Positions 112 through 8,859 of a DNA stretch of 13,075 nucleotides are shown in pieces (position 1 is the first letter of the stretch; each line of letters starts with the position of its first letter). This DNA is from Candidatus Desantisbacteria bacterium (GTDB lineage Bacteria > JACRDZ01): positions 1 through 13,075 of the forward strand of contig JACQWU010000157.1 in the NCBI GenBank assembly GCA_016209155.1, written 5' to 3'. Under the pieces are notes generated by a model, which was not told where the DNA came from, ran no database searches, and was given only the letters and a program-made list of their open reading frames with translations. The position numbers were made by a program, and so were the translations under genes.

Positions 112-219
112 ATGACTCGTAATGAAGTAATAGAACACTTAAAAAAATTCAAAGAAGAAAACAAAGATAAATATCACCATTCCAAAATATTTAAGGATAA
201 CTTATGGACTGGGCAATAA
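112..219 (+). CDS. Hypothetical 35-aa upstream small ORF (MTRNEVIEHLKKFKEENKDKYHHSKIFKDNLWTGQ). Overlaps the start of the large target gene in another frame.
   Basis: ATG at 112, preceded by a strong Shine-Dalgarno at 88-99. The TAA at 217-219 overlaps ATG 204 of the big ORF (ATGgactgggcaaTAA), an arrangement compatible with translational coupling. No homology recognised. Confidence 0.22.
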   Translation: MTRNEVIEHLKKFKEENKDKYHHSKIFKDNLWTGQ

Positions 220-3200
220 TAAATAAAATTCAAATTAAATTACAAGAACATAAAGATTCTCGTGTAAAAGAACTTCCACAGGGGGATATTAATGTTTTAG
301 TTATGAGCAACCTTTTAGCCCCGCATATTAATGCCAGTGAATTTGATATTCGGTTCATTGCTTCGGGTGCTTCCGGTGCCGGAGTTCTTTTAATAGTCAC
401 CGATGAAAAAGTTCCAATTATTATCAAATATGGGAAAAAAGAAATTGTTGATAGGGAAAAAGAAAATTATACTCTGAAAGTAAAAGAGTTTATTCAATCT
501 GAAATTATCCCAACCTTGAAAGATAGCTACATGACACTTGGTGAATATGCATCCATAGCATATATCTGGGGCGGCGGGTGGAATGAAGCCGGGAAATTTC
601 GTGATTACTTTAAGCATGAGGAATCCAGCAAAAAAATAAATGAACAAATCAGTTCTTTAATGGACGGGCTTTTTAAATGGTACAGACTTAAAAGAGGAAC
701 AATGATTCCTATTGACCAGTGGCAATGGAATCCCTCCAATGCTCTTGTCTCTGTTGAAAACAAAATCAAAGCCTGGGACAGCAATGATGGTGCTAAGAAA
801 AATTTAATTGCAGCAATTAGAAATCAGGAAAAATGGAGAAACGCAATAAGGATTGCAAACTTCAGCCAGGGTTTTTGTCATGGTGATTTGAACTGTAATA
901 ATATTATAATTTCTCAGAATAGTATTCCATTTCCAAAAATAATTGATTTTGCAAGTGTACGTGAAGGAATTACCCCTGCCAAGGACTGGGCAAAGTTTGA
1001 AAGGGAAATTAAATTCAGGTTTCTGCGGGATATCACATTGGATTCAACTGCATTTAGAAAAATGGTTAAACGAGTTGACGAAGTCTGTAATTCATTGAAT
1101 ACAACTGATGTTGATAACTCTATAAAAAAGCCATGCTATTTAATAACTTTTATAAGAAAAAAGTATTCGGAAAAAGTCAGTTCATTTTCTGATGCCCCAT
1201 ATCTTGAATATCTCTTTTATCTTTTCTATATAACACTATCATATATTATCCACCCGGAAATAAAAGATGATCTGGAAATACAAAACACAGTAATTGATTC
1301 TGCATACAGGACATTAGAAGAGATTGAAAAGTTATTCCCATACAAATATAAAAATTATACTTATCCCGGAATTTTGATTACAGAAGAAGAACCTTCTCCT
1401 AAAACTTATAAAAAAGATATTATTGATTTGCCAATAAAATTAGAAATTCCTGATAGTTATCAAAAATGGGTGGTTGATCGTTGTGAGGAAATCAATATAG
1501 AAAAATTAGTGGAAAGCAAAGACAGCGAAATTCTTTTAAGTGTAAAAATGCCGCAGATTTTTGTTCCTTTATATACCAATTCACTGGAAAACAAAACCAA
1601 TGAAGAAAAAGAGATCGAGCGTCATGAAATAGAAAAAAAACAGGAGTTGGTTAATATTGAAAAATTATCGGCGGAGAATGAATATTTAGTTATAAAAGGG
1701 CAGGCGGGTTCAGGTAAGACCACTTTATTAAAACATCTGGCTTATACTATAGCTAAAAAAATAAATCCGGATGGATTAAATGATTACCTGCCAGTACTAA
1801 TATTTTTAAATGATTTAAAGAAGGTTTCCAATTTGTCTGATAATAACATTGCCGGTACACCAAAAGCTGAAGAATTATTAACCGGTTACTTTGAAAAAAA
1901 CTGTCCCTCTCTGACTCTGGATATAATAAAAAGATTTTGCCGTGAAGGTAAAGCTATTTTTATATTTGACGGGCTGGATGAAATTAATACGGAAATAAGA
2001 AAAATCGTAGTTACTTCTTTTTCTGATTTTAGAACAAATAATAATTATCCAAAAATAGTATTGGCAGGAAGGCCGCACGGTATAGACACAAATGATAATA
2101 ATGTCTTATGTAAATTCCCCAATAAGTGCATTGAGATTAATACTTTAAATAATGAACAGATTAAAGATTTTGTAAAAAAATGGTTTTTATACGATTCTAA
2201 ACTGCAAAAAGAAGGCAAAACACCTGAGGGGATGATGTGTGAAATTACAGCTCATGAACGAGTTAAGGAACTGGTTATCAATCCACTGATGCTGACTGCT
2301 GTTTGTATTTTGTATCATTATGACCGAAAACTTCCGGAGCAGCGTGTTGAGTTGTATGAAAGGTTTATAAGCAATCTGATTTTTAAGAGATTTGATAATC
2401 CGCTAAAAATAGTAGAATTTTTAATGAGACTGGCTTTCAAAGTTCATACTGAAAAAACGAAAGAAGGAAGAGAGAGAGAAAGAAAATTTGATAACGCATT
2501 AGCCATCAAAGTAATGGAAGAAGTTTATCAGAAAGAAAAAGATGAAACCGATGTTGCATACAGGCAGAGGCTTGAGAGGCAATTTAAGAATATTGAACAA
2601 AATTGCGGACTGCTTGAAGTCAGCAATGATAAACAGTACAGGTTCTGGCATTTAAGTTTTCAGGAGTTTTTAAGTGCAAGGGATATTCAATCCCGGAATA
2701 TGAATTATGACAGGGCAATTGAAGAGTACTGGGATGATGACTGGTATGATGAAGTCATTAAGCTGCTTATAGGATATCTGGCTTTTAGCAGTAACAAGAA
2801 ATGGGCAAATACTATTGTTGAAAGCGAATTAAAAAATAAAGAAAATAATGTTTTCCCATTCAGGCGGATGTTGTTAGCCGCAGATGCGCTTAATGATATT
2901 CATAAAGATATGAGAGATAATAAGGTGCTTAAACTTGCTCAGGATTGTTTAAAGGATATTTGGGGAAAAGGGAATGATCCGAAAATATGGGTAAATGCGG
3001 GTGAAACCCTGGGCTGGTTGGGGGATACCAGAAACCTTAAAGAATTTATTCCTATTGAAGGTGGTGAATATAACTTTAAAGATTTGGGTGTTAAAAATAT
3101 AAAACCATTTGAAATAAGCAAATATCCGGTAACCAATCAATGGTTTGAAAAATTTATTAAAGCAAATGGATATGAAAATATGAATTATTGGAGTGAAGAA

Positions 3201-3695
3201 GGTAAAAAGTGGCTGAATCAACTAAAAGCCAAATACCCTCTATATTGGCACGAACGAAAATGGAAATGCCCAAATGCTCCAGTGGTTGGAGTATGCTGGT
3301 ATGAAGCGAATGCTTTCTGCCGATGGTTAAAACAAGGTTATAGATTGCCCACTGAACAAGAATGGCAAGCAACTGCCGCTGGGCTAAAAAACAGAATATA
3401 TCCATGGGGAAATGAGTTGCAAGATAATAGCTGTAATACTTATGAAACTAAAATTGGAAGAATTTCACCTGTGGGAATTTTTGCTAAAGGTTGCACTCCT
3501 CTTGGTGTAGCTGATATGGCTGGTAATGTGTGGGAATGGACTGACAGTTGGTTTGATGAAAGTAAAAATAGCAAGGTGCTTCGCGGGGGTTCATGGAACC
3601 TCAATCAGGAGCTCGCCCGATGCGCTAACCGTTACAGGAGCAATCCGGTGAACCGTGACAACAATCTCGGTTTTCGTTGTGCCAGGACTTTGTAG
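204..3695 (+). CDS. DGR target protein 1. N-terminal protein-kinase-like (APH/ChoK-type) domain, NACHT STAND NTPase, C-terminal FGE-sulfatase (SUMF1) / C-type-lectin-fold domain bearing the variable repeat.
   Basis: ATG 204 with AAGGA 6 nt upstream. Kinase motifs: G-rich loop GASGAGV, IIIKYG lysine, HGDLNCNNIII catalytic loop, IDF (DFG-like). NACHT: Walker A GQAGSGKTTLL, Walker B IFIFDGLDEI, GRPH sensor. C-terminus YRLPTEQEW...GNVWEWTDSW...RGGSW...GFRCARTL is a typical FGE-sulfatase fold. The last ~37 codons are the VR. Confidence 0.9.
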   Translation: MDWAIINKIQIKLQEHKDSRVKELPQGDINVLVMSNLLAPHINASEFDIRFIASGASGAGVLLIVTDEKVPIIIKYGKKEIVDREKENYTLKVKEFIQSEIIPTLKDSYMTLGEYASIAYIWGGGWNEAGKFRDYFKHEESSKKINEQISSLMDGLFKWYRLKRGTMIPIDQWQWNPSNALVSVENKIKAWDSNDGAKKNLIAAIRNQEKWRNAIRIANFSQGFCHGDLNCNNIIISQNSIPFPKIIDFASVREGITPAKDWAKFEREIKFRFLRDITLDSTAFRKMVKRVDEVCNSLNTTDVDNSIKKPCYLITFIRKKYSEKVSSFSDAPYLEYLFYLFYITLSYIIHPEIKDDLEIQNTVIDSAYRTLEEIEKLFPYKYKNYTYPGILITEEEPSPKTYKKDIIDLPIKLEIPDSYQKWVVDRCEEINIEKLVESKDSEILLSVKMPQIFVPLYTNSLENKTNEEKEIERHEIEKKQELVNIEKLSAENEYLVIKGQAGSGKTTLLKHLAYTIAKKINPDGLNDYLPVLIFLNDLKKVSNLSDNNIAGTPKAEELLTGYFEKNCPSLTLDIIKRFCREGKAIFIFDGLDEINTEIRKIVVTSFSDFRTNNNYPKIVLAGRPHGIDTNDNNVLCKFPNKCIEINTLNNEQIKDFVKKWFLYDSKLQKEGKTPEGMMCEITAHERVKELVINPLMLTAVCILYHYDRKLPEQRVELYERFISNLIFKRFDNPLKIVEFLMRLAFKVHTEKTKEGRERERKFDNALAIKVMEEVYQKEKDETDVAYRQRLERQFKNIEQNCGLLEVSNDKQYRFWHLSFQEFLSARDIQSRNMNYDRAIEEYWDDDWYDEVIKLLIGYLAFSSNKKWANTIVESELKNKENNVFPFRRMLLAADALNDIHKDMRDNKVLKLAQDCLKDIWGKGNDPKIWVNAGETLGWLGDTRNLKEFIPIEGGEYNFKDLGVKNIKPFEISKYPVTNQWFEKFIKANGYENMNYWSEEGKKWLNQLKAKYPLYWHERKWKCPNAPVVGVCWYEANAFCRWLKQGYRLPTEQEWQATAAGLKNRIYPWGNELQDNSCNTYETKIGRISPVGIFAKGCTPLGVADMAGNVWEWTDSWFDESKNSKVLRGGSWNLNQELARCANRYRSNPVNRDNNLGFRCARTL
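3575..3685 (+). repeat. DGR variable repeat VR1 (111 bp). Matches TR except for 9 substitutions, all at TR adenines.
   Basis: Aligned by eye to 5160-5270. Changes are AA>CT (x2), A>T, A>G, A>T, A>G, A>C. They map to first/second positions of TR AAC/AAT codons and to one GAG codon in the target frame. Confidence 0.92.
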
Positions 3696-3724: not shown

Positions 3725-3740
3725 ACCGCCGTTAGGCGGT
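3725..3740 (+). promoter_or_regulatory. GC hairpin ACCGCC-GTTA-GGCGGT, 40 nt downstream of VR1. Candidate DGR homing hairpin/cruciform; it may also terminate the target transcript.
   Basis: 6-bp GC stem with a 4-nt loop, located within the ~75-bp post-VR extension that is conserved after both VRs but absent after TR. Such a GC hairpin 3' of the VR is needed for efficient homing in the Bordetella phage BPP-1 DGR. Confidence 0.55.
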
Positions 3741-4114: not shown

Positions 4115-5213
4115 CAATCTATTTGATAAAATAATTTCATTTTCTAACCTTCTTCTCGCTTCCCAAAAAACGCAAAAAGGCAAGCGTTTTAAAGATGGAA
4201 TTGCTTTGTTTAATTTGAATCTGGAAAAGGAATTGATTAAACTGCAAAAAGAATTACAGGAAATGACTTATCATCATGGTGAATACCGTGATTTTTTTGT
4301 TTACGATCCAAAAAGACGGTTAATCAGCGCTGCTCCATACCGGGATCGAGTGGTTCATCATGCTCTTTGTAATATTATTGAACCAATTTTTAATAAAGCA
4401 TTTATTTATGATTCATATGCTAACCGGAAGGAAAAAGGTACTCATGCCGCAATTAATAGATATACTGAATTTGCCGGAAAAAATAAATATGTTTTGCAAT
4501 GTGATATACAAAAATATTTTCAAAGCGTTAACCATGAAATACTTCTGGAGATTATTTCAAAAAAGATTACATGCGTAAAAACACTCTGGCTTATTAGAGA
4601 AATCATCAATACACGATGCGATGAAAATTATTTCTTTTACTTTGAAAATGACGACCTTTTCAGCCCGTTTGAAAAAAAGAAAGGAATTCCTATAGGTAAT
4701 TTAACAAGCCAATTTTTTGCCAATGTTTATCTAAATGGTTTTGATCATTTCATAAAAGAAACGATTAAATGTCCATACATTCGCTATGTCGATGATTTTG
4801 TTGTATTCGGCAATGATAAAGAACAATTGCATGAAGTAAAAAATCAAATGGATATTTATCTTGCTTCATTACGTTTAAAACTTCACGAGAGAAAATGCAG
4901 AATATATCAAATCAAAGATGGACTTAACTTTCTTGGTTATAGAATATTTCCTGAGTATCGATTACTTAAGAAAGATAATATATTACGAATGAAAAGAAAG
5001 CTTAAAAAATTAAGCCATCAATATAAACATGGCTCAATTTCTCTTGATAAAATTCATCAAAGTATTCAAAGTTGGATAGGCCATGCTTCCCATGCCGATA
5101 CTTACAATTTAAGATCAAAGCTATTGGGAAGTGTAGCTTTTCAAAGGGGTGCGACCAGAGGTGCTTCGCGGGGGTTCATGGAACAACAATCAGGAGAACG
5201 CCCGATGCGCTAA
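4101..5213 (+). CDS. DGR-type reverse transcriptase. The last 18 codons are encoded by the template repeat.
   Basis: RT motifs: [11 protein letters not shown] (motif 1/2), [28 protein letters not shown] (the [I/L]GxxxSQ motif 4 characteristic of DGR RTs), [12 protein letters not shown] (YxDD). TR begins at 5160, inside the 3' end of the ORF. Confidence 0.92.
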
Positions 5214-5270
5214 CCGTAACAGGAACAATCCGGAGAACCGTAACAACAATATCGGTTTTCGTTGTGCCAG
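5160..5270 (+). repeat. DGR template repeat (TR), 111 bp. In the target reading frame it carries 12 AAC/AAT (Asn) codons.
   Basis: This copy has adenine at every position where VR1 or VR2 differs, and it sits next to the RT. Homology to the VRs begins at GGTGCTTCGC and ends at GTGCCAG; TR then continues TACTAAAAAAG whereas both VRs continue GACTTTGTAG. Confidence 0.92.
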
Positions 5271-5274
5271 TACT

Positions 5275-5448
5275 AAAAAAGTTTGTTTTTGCCGGAGCCT
5301 TATCTTTTAAGAAAAGATAGGGGTGTGCATTTACTTAAGTCCAGGTCGCAATCCTGTGTTGGCTTATTTTAGCCAACCAAAATAAAAATAGCTCTATCCG
5401 GGGTTAGTAGGGAGACTGAAAACTCCGGGAGAGTATAAAGGAGAAAAA
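5275..5448 (+). ncRNA. Candidate DGR RNA spacer: a structured non-coding segment 3' of TR
   Basis: No ORF. Several hairpins are visible: CTTATCTTTT-aag-AAAAGATAG (5298-5322), GTTGGCT-tatttt-AGCCAAC (5358-5377), and CCGG...CCGG (5398-5430). In BPP-1 the spacer 3' of TR provides the priming site for cDNA synthesis. The role here is inferred only. Confidence 0.3.
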
Positions 5449-7301
5449 TTGGGAAAATTTAAAATTAAAATTTTAAGTGATAATCCGGAAGAAATAAAAG
5501 AAAACATTAAGTTTGATTTTCATGCTTATAAAAAAACATTTGTTGATATCATATCCTCAAATGATAATGAAACTCCGCTTGTAATAGGGCTTGAAGGCAG
5601 ATGGGGGAGAGGTAAAACCACATAGATATAAAAAAATTATGGGATAAACTTAATCTTAAGGCAATACCTGAATTTTTAGTAGACTATATTCCTTTTTTAA
5701 AAGGTTTTTCAAATATAATAAAAGAAGAAGATTATAAAAAAAACCTGCCGTATTTTAACCTTTTCAGCACATTTTTAAAACAATTAATCAGGCTTTGGAT
5801 TCATTGTGAAGATTCATTTAAAATAACTGATGGAGAAAGCATTGGGGTTGGAGAAATAGATGATAAAAAAGGTGTTGTGGTAATTTTTATTGACGACCTT
5901 GACAGGTGTAATAAAGAAAATATTGTAAAAGTTCTAGAAGCTGTGAAACTTTTTCTTGATTTTAGAGGATGTATTTTCGTAATGGGGGTTTCTATAGAAA
6001 TTATAGTAAAGGCTACTTCTTCTGTGGCTCATTGTGAAGATGGAAGTGAATACCTTGAAAAGATGATTCAGGTATCATACGGACTTCCACCAATTCACCA
6101 GGATGATATGAAAATTTATTTCGAAGAAAAAATTTCCCTATTTTCCTATAATGATATCTTAAATAAATACTCAGACGTAATTATAAAATCATTTGGAGAT
6201 AGGATTACTCCAAGAAAAATTAAGCAGTTCATTAATAATCTAAACCTGCAAATTAAGATATCAGATAATAAGGGTTTATTTGAAAAAGATTTTTATGATG
6301 AAAATAATAATAAAATAATTTTAAAAATTGATCATTATATATACTGGAATATTCTGAAAGAAGCATTTAGAATAAATTTTGATAGTATTAAAGATAATAC
6401 AGATATTATAAAAATGACACAAACCGCATATAAAGAAAATGAAGCTCAAATAAAAAATAGTAATTTTGAAAATATTGATAAAATCCGATACGAAGTTGTT
6501 AAGGATATACTAAAAAATCAAATGTTACGGGAGATAGTTATAAATTTACCTGATAATGCTGAGATTATAAATATATTAAAATTTGAATCTTTAGCAGTTG
6601 GTCAAATACATATAGAAACAGAAGATATGAAGGGAATGCGTGAGCATTATCGTAGTGGGGCAATGGTAAAAATTGAAAAAGGTCCGTTTTTATATACAGA
6701 GGAAAAAATTAAAGAAAAAATAGATTACGATTATGAAATAGATATATTCCCTGTTACAATTGAAGAATATTGCAAATTTATAGATATTAAGAAGCCGGAT
6801 AAAAAGGAATTAGATAATTGGATTTCTTTAGAAGGTAGGATTAAAGAGAAAGATGGAAAATATATTGTGGAAAAATGTTACGAGAAACATCCTATTATTT
6901 ATGTATCATGGTATGGTGCTAAGGAATATGCAAAATGGATGAAAAAAAGACTGCCCGAAGAAAAAGAATGGGAGAAAGCGGCAAGGGGACCAAATGGTTG
7001 GATATATCCATGGGGTGATGAGTTTGATAAAGGAAAATGCAATACCTCTGAATCCAATAATAATGATACAACTGAGGTAGACAAATATCCGAATGGAAAA
7101 AGTTATTATGGATGCTATGATATGGCAGGTAATGTCTGGGAGTGGACGGACAGTTGGTATGATAAAAATATGGATAGCAAGGTGCTTCGCGGGGGTTCAT
7201 GGTACTACGATCAGGAGTACGCCCGATGCGCTGACCGTGACAGGTACCTTCCGGAGTACCGTAACCTCGATATCGGTTTTCGTTGTGCCAGGACTTTGTA
7301 G
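5449..7301 (+). pseudogene. DGR target 2: KAP-family P-loop NTPase fused to a C-terminal FGE-sulfatase/CLec VR domain. Interrupted by a TAG and a -1 frame change immediately after the Walker A motif. The intact downstream ORF is 5616/5877..7301.
   Basis: TTG 5449 with AAGGAG upstream. Frame 1 gives LGKFKIKILSDNPEE...PLVIGLEGRWGRGKTT*, i.e. KAP Walker A GxWGxGKT, with stop at 5623-5625. Frame 0 is open from 5616 and continues ...VVIFIDDLDRC, the KAP Walker B DDLDRC. The C-terminus (...YGCYDMAGNVWEWTDSWYD...GFRCARTL) is paralogous to target 1. Confidence 0.7.
7181..7291 (+). repeat. DGR variable repeat VR2 (111 bp): 14 substitutions relative to TR, all at TR adenines
   Basis: By-eye alignment. 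AAC>TAC (x5), AAT>GAT (x2), AAC>GAC (x2), AAT>CTT, AAC>CTC. The flanks are identical to TR. Confidence 0.92.
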
Positions 7302-7330: not shown

Positions 7331-7346
7331 ACCGCCGTAAGGCGGT
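7331..7346 (+). promoter_or_regulatory. GC hairpin ACCGCC-GTAA-GGCGGT downstream of VR2, a paralogue of the VR1 hairpin
   Basis: Same stem and same distance from the VR as at 3725-3740. The surrounding ~75 bp (7292-7360) is about 90% identical to 3686-3760. Confidence 0.55.
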
Positions 7347-7419: not shown

Positions 7420-7448
7420 TTGCCAATGAAGCGATAATAATATATAAT
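7420..7448 (+). promoter_or_regulatory. Candidate sigma70 promoter for fic: TTGCCA (7420-7425), 17 nt, TATAAT (7443-7448)
   Basis: Hexamers read directly. About 40 nt upstream of the likely fic start ATG 7490 (RBS AGGGTG at 7475-7480). Confidence 0.4.
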
Positions 7449-7489
7449 TGCATCAATATTTGAAGCGATTAAATAGGGTGAAAAATATT

Positions 7490-8443
7490 ATGACAAAATA
7501 TATATGGCAGAAAAAGGATTGGTATGATTTTAATTATGATCATAAAGCATTGATTGAATTACTTGCAAAAGCACGTCTTATGCAGGGAAATATGCTCGGG
7601 AAAATGTCATTGCTTGATATAAACCAGGAGATAGAAGCTCAGGCTGAAGTTCTTATTGAGGAAGCAGTAAGAACAGCAGAGATAGAAGGTATGTCATTAA
7701 ACAGAGATGCAGTAAGATCATCGGTAGCTATGCGTTTAGGGCTTCCGCATGGGGTAAACATAAAAGATAGAAATGCGGATGGACTTGTTGAGGTTTTGCT
7801 TGATGCAATACATTTTAATGAAAAACCACTTACGCAGGAAAGATTAAACGCCTGGCAGGCAGCGCTTTTCCCGACAGGATATTCAGGTCTAAAGAAAATA
7901 CGTACCGGAGAATTGCGGGGTCATGATCCAATGCGTGTAATATCAGGACCTATAGGTAAAGAAAAAATGCATTTTGAAGCACCGCCTGCGCAGCAGATTA
8001 AAAAAGAATTAAGCCATTTTATAAATTGGTGGAATGATTCATCGGATAAAATGGACGGTATGTTACGGGCTGCTGCCGCGCATCTGCGATTTATAACAAT
8101 ACACCCTTATGAGGATGGAAATGGAAGAATAGCGCGCGCACTGACAGATATGGCTCTTTCACAGGATTAAAAAATAAAAGTAAGATTTTATAGTGTTTCT
8201 TCACAAATCATGAAAAATCGGGAGGATTATTACAATATTCTTGAAAATATCCAGAACTGTCGTCTTGATGTCACTGAATGGTTTGTATGGTTTATAAAAT
8301 GTGTTATATCCGCGATAGAACATTCGCAAAATATTATTGCAAATGTGTTCAAAAAAGCTGAATTCTGGAAAAAACATGCACAAACACAATTAAATGAAAG
8401 ACAGAGAAAAGTGATAGCTAAACTTCTTGAAGCAGGTCCCTAA
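7490..8443 (+). pseudogene. fic: Fic/DOC family protein (N-terminal DUF4172-like region + Fic domain) containing an in-frame TAA at 8168-8170. The track splits it into 7448..8170 and 8210..8443.
   Basis: Fic active-site motif HPYEDGNGRIARAL. N-terminus MTKYIWQKKDWYDF. Both pieces share one frame and are separated only by the TAA (...ALSQD*KIKVRFYSVSSQIMKNREDYY...). The C-terminal piece has the usual winged-helix tail (NERQRKVIAKLLE). Confidence 0.6.
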
Positions 8444-8541: not shown

Positions 8542-8859
8542 TTACTGCAACAGTAAGGGCGAACCTACTCGTTTACGAAGCATTTCCAGTAAAAGACGGA
8601 TTGCCCTGATTTCACTTATACGACTAAAATCCATTACATCTTTACGCACAATATCCGTATAATATTGCTGGCGCCAGCGCTCGGCATACTCATCAGATAA
8701 GGAAAGAAATGGTTCAGGAAAACCGCCTAATCTATTTAATGCAGAAACTGCTTCGTAAGGTGGCAAGAGACCGGATAATTCCTTTACCGAAAGCGGATTT
8801 AAATGGAAAAGAAAATATCTGCCTGCAAGGGAATCTCCTGTTTGCCGAAAAGTATCCAA
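8542..8859 (-). pseudogene. Internal fragment of an AAA+ ATPase of the COG1373/DUF4143 type (gene remnant)
   Basis: 105-aa ORF with ...TGDSLAGRYFLFHLNPLSVKEL..., the conserved GR...L.PLSFxE segment of this family. It lacks the N-terminal P-loop and the C-terminal DUF4143, and is bounded by an in-frame stop immediately upstream of its TTG. Confidence 0.5.

Follow-up and report, generated by a model that had tools for sequence, protein, structure and literature searches.

The 13,075-nucleotide (nt) contig JACQWU010000157.1 of Candidatus Desantisbacteria, analysed here over its full length and called the window below, carries a diversity-generating retroelement (DGR) whose first target gene (target 1) encodes a single protein of kinase, NACHT NTPase and C-type-lectin-fold domains. 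The anatomy of this locus, by which we mean the identity of the domains, the intact catalytic and nucleotide-binding motifs, the parts of the DGR and the adenine-specific divergence between its template region (TR) and variable regions (VR), can be stated with very high confidence. As for function, we infer a ligand, oligomerisation, the kinase as output and an immune role, and to this mechanism, in which the kinase is the output of an immune sensor, we give a probability of roughly 0.55. NACHT proteins with DGR-diversified sensors of the FGE type have already been published, and the locus fits their description point for point; the rare part is the kinase.

Domain composition of the target 1 protein

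The product of target 1 is identical to the database protein MBI4651196.1 (Candidatus Desantisbacteria, 13,075-nt contig) and is read from one continuous open reading frame (ORF; Table 1). A first-pass annotation of the same DNA had described a protein of 1163 amino acids (aa) made of a kinase-like domain, a NACHT NTPase and an FGE-sulfatase domain, and the unbroken frame together with profile, fold and motif evidence for each domain confirms this composition. All motifs quoted there were located, namely HGDLNCNN (aa 226-233) and IDF (aa 247-249) in the kinase, and GQAGSGKTT (aa 499-507) and DGLDE (aa 589-593) in the NACHT module. Both the NACHT and the FGE-sulfatase profiles of Pfam matched as that annotation had proposed (Table 1). 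The order of effector, STAND NTPase and sensor is that of validated antiviral STAND/bNACHT systems, and the effector, switch and sensor logic that had been put forward agrees with the published reading of this protein class. Neither a transmembrane segment nor a signal-like N-terminus was found in the protein (peak 19-residue hydropathy 1.56), so that it can meet intracellular ligands only. Its sequence predicts a soluble, cytoplasmic NLR-like STAND protein.

To which branch of the kinases does the N-terminal domain belong? The Pfam family TCAD9 (PF19974), which is counted among the protein-kinase-like families, matched aa 222-324 with 47.3 bits when the whole protein was used and scored 51.9 bits with the domain alone (cut-off 40), while the APH profile stayed below its cut-off on target 1 (16.4 vs 23.2 bits, E=0.008). 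The APH- or protein-kinase-like profile match anticipated earlier was thus obtained for TCAD9 and not for APH. An AlphaFold model of the domain, built from a 58-sequence alignment, reached a predicted local distance difference test score (pLDDT) of 94.1 and a predicted template-modelling score (pTM) of 0.92. It has a bilobal kinase fold, and Foldseek agrees with this fold. Besides the two motifs given above, the key residues are a Gly-rich loop (aa 54-60), Lys75 and Glu85. Across the 58 aligned sequences Lys75, His226, Gly227, Asp228 and Asn233 are invariant, and Gly55, Ser57, Glu85, Asp248 and Asp261 are conserved in at least 90%. The catalytic set of target 1 is complete: β3 Lys, αC Glu, the HxDxxxxN loop and the DFG-like Asp are all present. 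Sequence and model together predict an active kinase. The kinase-like assignment stands as regards the fold and is refined to the APH/methylthioribose-kinase (MTRK)/choline-kinase (ChoK) branch; the domain is not of the Hanks Ser/Thr type, so that small molecules and peptides both come into question as its substrate.

A word-indexed homologue search with the kinase domain gave only two relatives, and an exhaustive HMMER search was needed; in 1.84 billion proteins this found only 89 representative clusters, of which 36 had E<1e-10. In these homologues the TCAD9 domain is almost always N-terminal and precedes NTPases of the nSTAND5, NACHT or nSTAND1 type, the C-terminal parts including TPR or PD40 beta-propeller repeats; receiver, TIR and cyclase domains are also present among them. 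One homologue, P0008, has TCAD9 fused directly to an FGE domain with no NTPase. Target 1 resembles the family in its catalytic motifs, which are common in it, and in the N-terminal position of the kinase, followed in most homologues by a STAND NTPase and repeat sensors. It differs from the context that gave TCAD9 its name, the vWA-MoxR-VMAP ternary conflict systems, since none of these three genes is among the ORFs of the 13-kb window. With 52% identity P0001 comes closest to the kinase of target 1. It is a stand-alone protein of 459 aa, followed by proteins of 917 aa and 392 aa, neither with a Pfam match, which may form an uncharacterised partner system for TCAD9 kinases; the group lies on L001 (10001-15435).

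The central module was judged by the NACHT signature, which combines a Walker A motif GxxGxGKT/S with a Walker B motif D-[GAS]-h-D-E, where a small residue after Asp is followed by two acidic residues, a definition that reportedly goes back to Koonin and Aravind in 2000. In target 1 the Walker A motif is the GQAGSGKTT already mentioned, and the NACHT-type Walker B reads FDGLDE (aa 588-593). They are joined by a sensor-1 Arg inside LAGRPHG (aa 620-626) and by the winged-helix, or His, motif FWHLSFQEFLSA (aa 814-825). These motifs are nearly invariant in a family alignment of 34 homologues. The module is complete and is assigned to the NACHT clade of STAND NTPases.

The C-terminal domain has sequence matches in the Protein Data Bank to SUMF2, OvsA, EgtB and FGE, and an AlphaFold model of aa 936-1163 (pLDDT 84.9) is placed by Foldseek close to EgtB, OvsA, FGE and ToxD (template-modelling scores 0.70-0.82). 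The first variable region (VR1) lies at its end, and in 20 of the VR1 codons a template adenine stands in the first or second position. In 34 homologous lectin domains the codons at template adenines are hypervariable, with a mean entropy of 2.77 bits against 0.64 for the other VR codons and 1.33 for the rest of the domain, whereas the scaffold GGSW..RCA.R....P..R....GFRC is fixed. VR1 also aligns weakly (E=0.83) to residues 250-291 in the variable C-terminal part of TvpA. In the published structures of Mtd and TvpA the equivalent region arranges the variable residues into a ligand-binding site, and by this analogy VR1 would form an exposed ligand-binding face. About 18-20 residues are randomised, and the theoretical repertoire is ~10^18.8 (roughly 10^19) variants per target.

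The diversity-generating retroelement and its surroundings

Repeat finding returned three gap-free copies of 116 nt, namely VR1, the TR and a second variable region (VR2) in another gene (target 2), which shares the TR with target 1. The body of VR1 differs from the TR at 9 positions and that of VR2 at 13, and each of these 22 mismatches falls on a template adenine, although adenines make up only 34 of the 116 template bases (P ~2e-12). The sole difference elsewhere is a T>G at TR position 5271 (3686 in VR1), common to both VRs and four bases from the end of the homology. Read in the VR frame, 32 of the 34 TR adenines stand in the first or second codon position, the AAY type accounts for twelve codons, and no adenine substitution in the TR can give a stop codon. 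Hypermutation had been said to act on the sensor only, and this holds: within target 1 only the final 39 codons of the lectin fold are subject to the DGR.

The GC-rich end GGTTTTCGTTGTGCCAG, common to VR and TR with a single VR/TR difference, resembles the initiation of mutagenic homology (IMH) at the 3′ end of such regions. Behind each VR stands a hairpin of the pattern ACCGCC-GTWA-GGCGGT (6-bp stem, 4-nt loop), found twice in the window with 0 matches expected. Both VRs and their hairpins sit in a 245-nt repeat that runs past the stop codon and is common to targets 1 and 2, and by analogy with the DGR of Bordetella phage the hairpin is likely a target-recognition element. A further hairpin directly after the TR may belong to the DGR RNA or act as a terminator. 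The accessory protein bAvd and a reverse transcriptase (RT) are encoded between target 1 and the TR. The RT has many relatives at 57-73% identity, the nearest from Desulfovibrionales, Poribacteria, Desulfobacterales, Aminicenantes and KSB1; its name in GenBank is a domain-level misannotation. With adenine-confined TR/VR differences, RT, bAvd and 3′ recognition elements, the DGR is confirmed as complete. Scans of the window for Rfam families and tRNAs gave no matches.

Table 1. Features of the locus, with positions in the window.
Feature	Position	Strand	Details
DGR target gene 1	204..3695	+	Continuous ORF, 1163 aa; order kinase, NACHT, FGE-type C-type-lectin fold
N-terminal kinase domain, aa 1-377	204..1334	+	Pfam TCAD9, APH/MTR-kinase-like fold
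NACHT STAND NTPase module, aa 480-830	1641..2693	+	Pfam NACHT aa 494-661, 41.6 bits vs cut-off 26.7
FGE-sulfatase-type C-type-lectin-fold domain, aa 964-1161	3093..3686	+	Pfam E=3.7e-47; putative ligand sensor
VR1, aa 1124-1162 (39 codons)	3574..3689	+	Gap-free match to TR; 116 nt at end of lectin domain
Hairpin ACCGCC-GTTA-GGCGGT	3725..3740	+	36 nt after VR1
bAvd (accessory variability determinant), 115 aa	3767..4114	+	Pfam bAvd E=1.1e-20, 74.6 bits vs cut-off 40
DGR reverse transcriptase, 370 aa	4101..5213	+	RVT_1 E=9.5e-29; YVDD in translation
TR, 116 nt	5159..5274	+	34 adenines; overlaps last 55 nt of RT ORF (stop at 5213)
Hairpin, 11-bp stem, directly after TR	5298..5322	+	z-score only -1.8, weak
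DGR target gene 2, KAP-family P-loop NTPase and FGE-type lectin fold	5449..7301	+	Frameshift and TAG just after Walker A (~5613-5625)
VR2	7180..7295	+	13 adenine-site mismatches to TR and the same T>G near 3′ end
Hairpin ACCGCC-GTAA-GGCGGT	7331..7346	+	36 nt after VR2; z = -3.3
Fic/DUF4172 gene	7448..8170	+	PADLOC SoFic E=4e-27

Target 2, which the first-pass annotation had left out of its description of this system, is frameshifted or mis-assembled. Its ORF 5877..7301 matches FGE-sulfatase and only profile positions 154-287 of KAP_NTPase, and the Walker A motif (GLEGRWGRGKTT) lies upstream in ORF 5449..5625, where a TAG stands right after the P-loop (GRGKTT) and the remainder runs in another frame. 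A correction of 1 nt would restore about 616 aa, and joining the two parts conceptually lifts the KAP_NTPase match from 70 to 101 bits. The Fic gene behind it ends at an in-frame TAA (8168-8170), after which the frame stays open for ~90 more codons (to 8443), and it is either a pseudogene or the site of a sequencing error. An alternative genetic code was considered for the in-frame stops and rejected: the Fic stop is TAA, and the break in target 2 needs a change of frame as well as read-through of TAG.

Between the Fic and SPFH genes lies an ORF of 105 aa on the minus strand (8542..8859) with no Pfam match, which looks like the remnant of a larger gene. The remaining genes of the window are housekeeping genes for an SPFH protein, a threonine-synthase-like PLP enzyme (thrC-like PALP) and an alpha-glucan phosphorylase; the GC content of the window is ~34%, and the locus is chromosomal and not of a phage. 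Upstream of target 1 a short ORF on the plus strand (82/112..219) has an ATG at 112 preceded by GGAGG and overlaps the start of target 1 by 16 nt. As a conserved partner gene it was rejected, for no similarity to it was found upstream of P0001 and P0002 (the latter is described below). The best sigma-70-like site is TTGACA-17-AATAAT at 24-52.

Relatives with exchanged N-termini and comparison with known systems

It is instructive to follow the conserved core of target 1, from NACHT to the C-terminus (aa 441-1163), through other genomes. At least 233 proteins were found with it, and the best 120 were compared. All 120 have NACHT and FGE-sulfatase domains and are 39-65% identical to the query over ~99% of its length, but their N-termini vary: Metallophos is the commonest, and DUF4062, PF24391, methyltransferase, glycosyltransferase-1, TIR or nothing at all are found in its place. 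Among these 120 only the protein of the window has TCAD9. Since the N-termini are interchangeable on a conserved core of switch and sensor, the kinase occupies the "effector" slot of that core, and this position is the strongest available argument for the kinase as output module.

A parallel in arrangement is a Poribacteria locus (L004): behind a Metallophos-NACHT-CLec target (P0094) come bAvd, RT and a TR-like ORF, in the order of the window. The core of P0094 is 52% identical to that of target 1 over 99% of its length, and the RT of L004 is 68% identical to ours. However, the N-terminus of P0094 is a calcineurin-like phosphoesterase and not a kinase, and L004 has no second target of the KAP type.

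The combination of TCAD9, NACHT and a DGR-diversified lectin fold is rare. Besides target 1 we found it in a collinear split copy (L003, 1716-5244), where overlapping ORFs encode TCAD9 (P0002, 440 aa) and NACHT-CLec (P0118, 737 aa), and in degraded form on a groundwater contig of Elusimicrobia (L008, 1-4314), where a TCAD9 fragment abuts a truncated NACHT-CLec ORF. The split of P0002 and P0118 falls inside the conserved pre-NACHT segment, and there is no RT in 13 kb of L003. On L008 a second NACHT-CLec ORF follows, truncated at its N-terminus, so that the contig resembles a "graveyard" of the family. A search of GTDB genomes for related loci with a single protein as query found nothing, and one with a 9-sequence alignment gave two loci, a distant homologue in Acidobacteria and a fragmentary Elusimicrobia contig.

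That STAND proteins occur as DGR targets had been stated in the first-pass annotation, and three papers bear this out. Kaur et al. 2020 described domains of the FGE type (FGS) coupled to DGRs in NTP-dependent conflict systems and noted active APH-like kinase effectors as rare, many kinase domains being inactive in related conflict systems. Among bacterial NACHT proteins Kibby et al. 2022 distinguished an "antigen receptor type" with an FGS domain, and its N-terminal effectors include calcineurin-like phosphoesterases, protein kinases and GT4 glycosyltransferases. In the DGR loci of clade 5D (Doré et al. 2024, PMC10907252) two targets with a single CLec each and central NACHT, nSTAND1 or KAP NTPases are common, and many targets, proposed as antigen sensors, have uncharacterised N-terminal extensions.

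The locus of the window shares with this class the central NACHT, one C-terminal lectin domain of the FGE type with its VR, the adjacent bAvd, RT and TR, a variable N-terminus, the predicted cytoplasmic location and two targets per locus, one of them with a KAP NTPase. By its layout, NACHT-CLec and KAP-CLec flanking the DGR, it answers the description of a clade 5D-type locus. It differs in the TCAD9/APH-like kinase, as the texts of the three papers give Pkinase (PF00069), TIR, peptidases, phosphoesterases and uncharacterised extensions, and neither a TCAD9 kinase on a NACHT-lectin core nor a host from Desantisbacteria was found in them; the host, known from an uncultivated metagenome-assembled genome (MAG), is not a known multicellular bacterium, whereas the published class has been linked to multicellularity. 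Kinase or NACHT targets are not mentioned in the main texts of Roux 2021 and of a 2023 IJMS review, and a literature search for Desantisbacteria combined with DGR found no paper.

With characterised antiviral STAND proteins such as Avs1-5 and bNACHT01/11 target 1 has in common the order of effector, STAND NTPase and sensor and the swapping of effectors on a conserved core. However, their sensors are germline-fixed, TPR-like or short, and recognise conserved phage proteins, whereas target 1 has a somatically hypervariable sensor. Where nucleases, proteases, Sir2 or TIR serve them as validated effectors, target 1 has an APH-like kinase. The DGRs of Bordetella phage BPP-1 (Mtd) and Treponema (TvpA) are similar in the FGE-subclass lectin fold, the C-terminal VR, the AAY-rich template, the IMH-like 3′ end and the downstream hairpin. 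In contrast to target 1, a cytoplasmic multidomain switch as predicted, Mtd and TvpA are surface or extracellular binders with no NTPase or effector.

Proposed mechanism, rival explanations and significance

How could such a cassette work? Its order is target 1, bAvd, RT, TR and target 2, as a chromosomal DGR. The RT and bAvd would copy the 116-nt TR into cDNA, misincorporating opposite adenines, and the mutated cDNA would replace the last 39 codons of the lectin domain while the scaffold residues are kept. A variant lectin domain would then bind its cognate ligand, most plausibly a protein of a phage or other invader, and binding would release the autoinhibition of NACHT, which would exchange its nucleotide and oligomerise. 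Oligomerisation would bring the N-terminal APH-like (TCAD9) kinase domains together, and the activated kinases may phosphorylate a small-molecule, peptide or protein substrate, leading to growth arrest or to a block of the invader.

Several observations weigh against this reading. Target 1 has no significant PADLOC match to a validated defence family, the best being to mad8 in the P-loop only (1.7e-5), with another weak match to MkoA in the kinase region (1.6e-4), and the NCBIfam model EruA reaches 18 bits where its cut-off is 1000. VR1 differs from the template at only 9 of 34 adenines, and in one assembled sequence. Two homologous loci, one with DUF4062 and one with TIR as N-terminus, have no RT within 8 kb. 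In structure the kinase has mostly small-molecule or metabolic kinases as neighbours, so that an output by protein phosphorylation is not implied, and the frameshift of target 2 and the in-frame TAA of the Fic gene may reflect either decay of the locus or errors of MAG assembly.

Could target 1 simply be an enzyme? GenBank names MBI4651196.1 a "SUMF1/EgtB/PvdO family nonheme iron enzyme", and NCBIfam models for EgtB, SenA and OvoA do match at the level of a domain. Their scores, however, are at most 113 bits where the cut-offs are 360-420. The matches span only the C-terminal FGE-like half, and the DinB-like half is missing from target 1. The stretch after GGSW, which we take to be the place of the catalytic cysteines in human FGE, is the hypervariable VR, and such variability is incompatible with a fixed active site. 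We therefore consider membership in this non-haem-iron enzyme family practically negligible and the name a domain-level misannotation. The same architecture could also serve a non-immune signalling receptor, in which the lectin domain would sample environmental, surface or kin-recognition ligands and the NACHT-gated kinase would tune physiology and not cause abortive infection. A kinase is a classical signalling output and not a classical killing one, and the metabolic or small-molecule character of its structural neighbours, the fusion of TCAD9 homologues to response-regulator receiver and cyclase domains and the housekeeping genes around the cassette, where no dense defence island is seen, point the same way. 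However, the same core carries TIR and metallophosphoesterase, which are typical effectors of conflict systems, a SoFic-like gene adjoins the cassette, a protein lacking signal peptide and transmembrane segment is restricted to ligands inside the cell, and the literature puts this class among conflict systems. We regard the signalling receptor as unlikely.

It is less likely still that the kinase is not the output at all and serves as a gate (regulatory or autophosphorylating), as a module that senses nucleotides or as an adaptor, the true effector being encoded elsewhere. The many inactive kinase domains of related conflict systems (Kaur et al. 2020) speak for such a role, and the stand-alone P0001 with its 917-aa neighbour and the split pair P0002/P0118 suggest that the kinase may be a modular partner. 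But the catalytic residues Lys75, Glu85, His226, Asp228, Asn233 and Asp248 vary little or not at all, and this speaks against a pseudo-enzyme; the kinase sits exactly where sister proteins have enzymatic effectors, and no candidate partner effector is encoded between target 1 and the DGR genes. Also improbable, to a slightly greater degree, is a decaying or inactive relic, a cassette that formerly diversified its targets and no longer functions in this genome. The frameshift in target 2, the TAA in the Fic gene and the gene fragment at 8542..8859 favour decay, as does the Elusimicrobia contig with only fragments of the same family. Against it, target 1, bAvd and RT are full-length with intact motifs, the TR keeps its stop-proof AAY codons, and disruptions in a single MAG contig could be errors of assembly or sequencing.

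What would follow if target 1 is an immune sensor and acts through its kinase? It is possible, though less likely than not, that TCAD9 is a genuine ligand-gated output which phosphorylates a small molecule (nucleotide, sugar or metabolite) or a peptide of invader or host. The sensor coupled to it is hypervariable, and the phylum is not one in which multicellularity is known. If this were true, the kinase would bring in an effector chemistry of which STAND immune proteins have so far given no demonstrated case, and the exclusive link of such systems to multicellularity that has been proposed would be weakened. If proteins of this class are immune receptors, they would be what comes closest in bacteria to an anticipatory, antibody-like recognition coupled to an NLR switch, and the locus contributes a compact example on one polypeptide, with a putative kinase output.

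The published conceptual picture is not changed by the locus, and its architecture will be no surprise to a specialist. With a cassette of ~7 kb, a predicted soluble protein and all motifs intact it is a practical candidate for reconstitution. It also gives the poorly understood TCAD9 kinase family a first concrete context in which a function may be assigned, and thus offers a handle on the function of both TCAD9 and the DGR-diversified NLR-like proteins.

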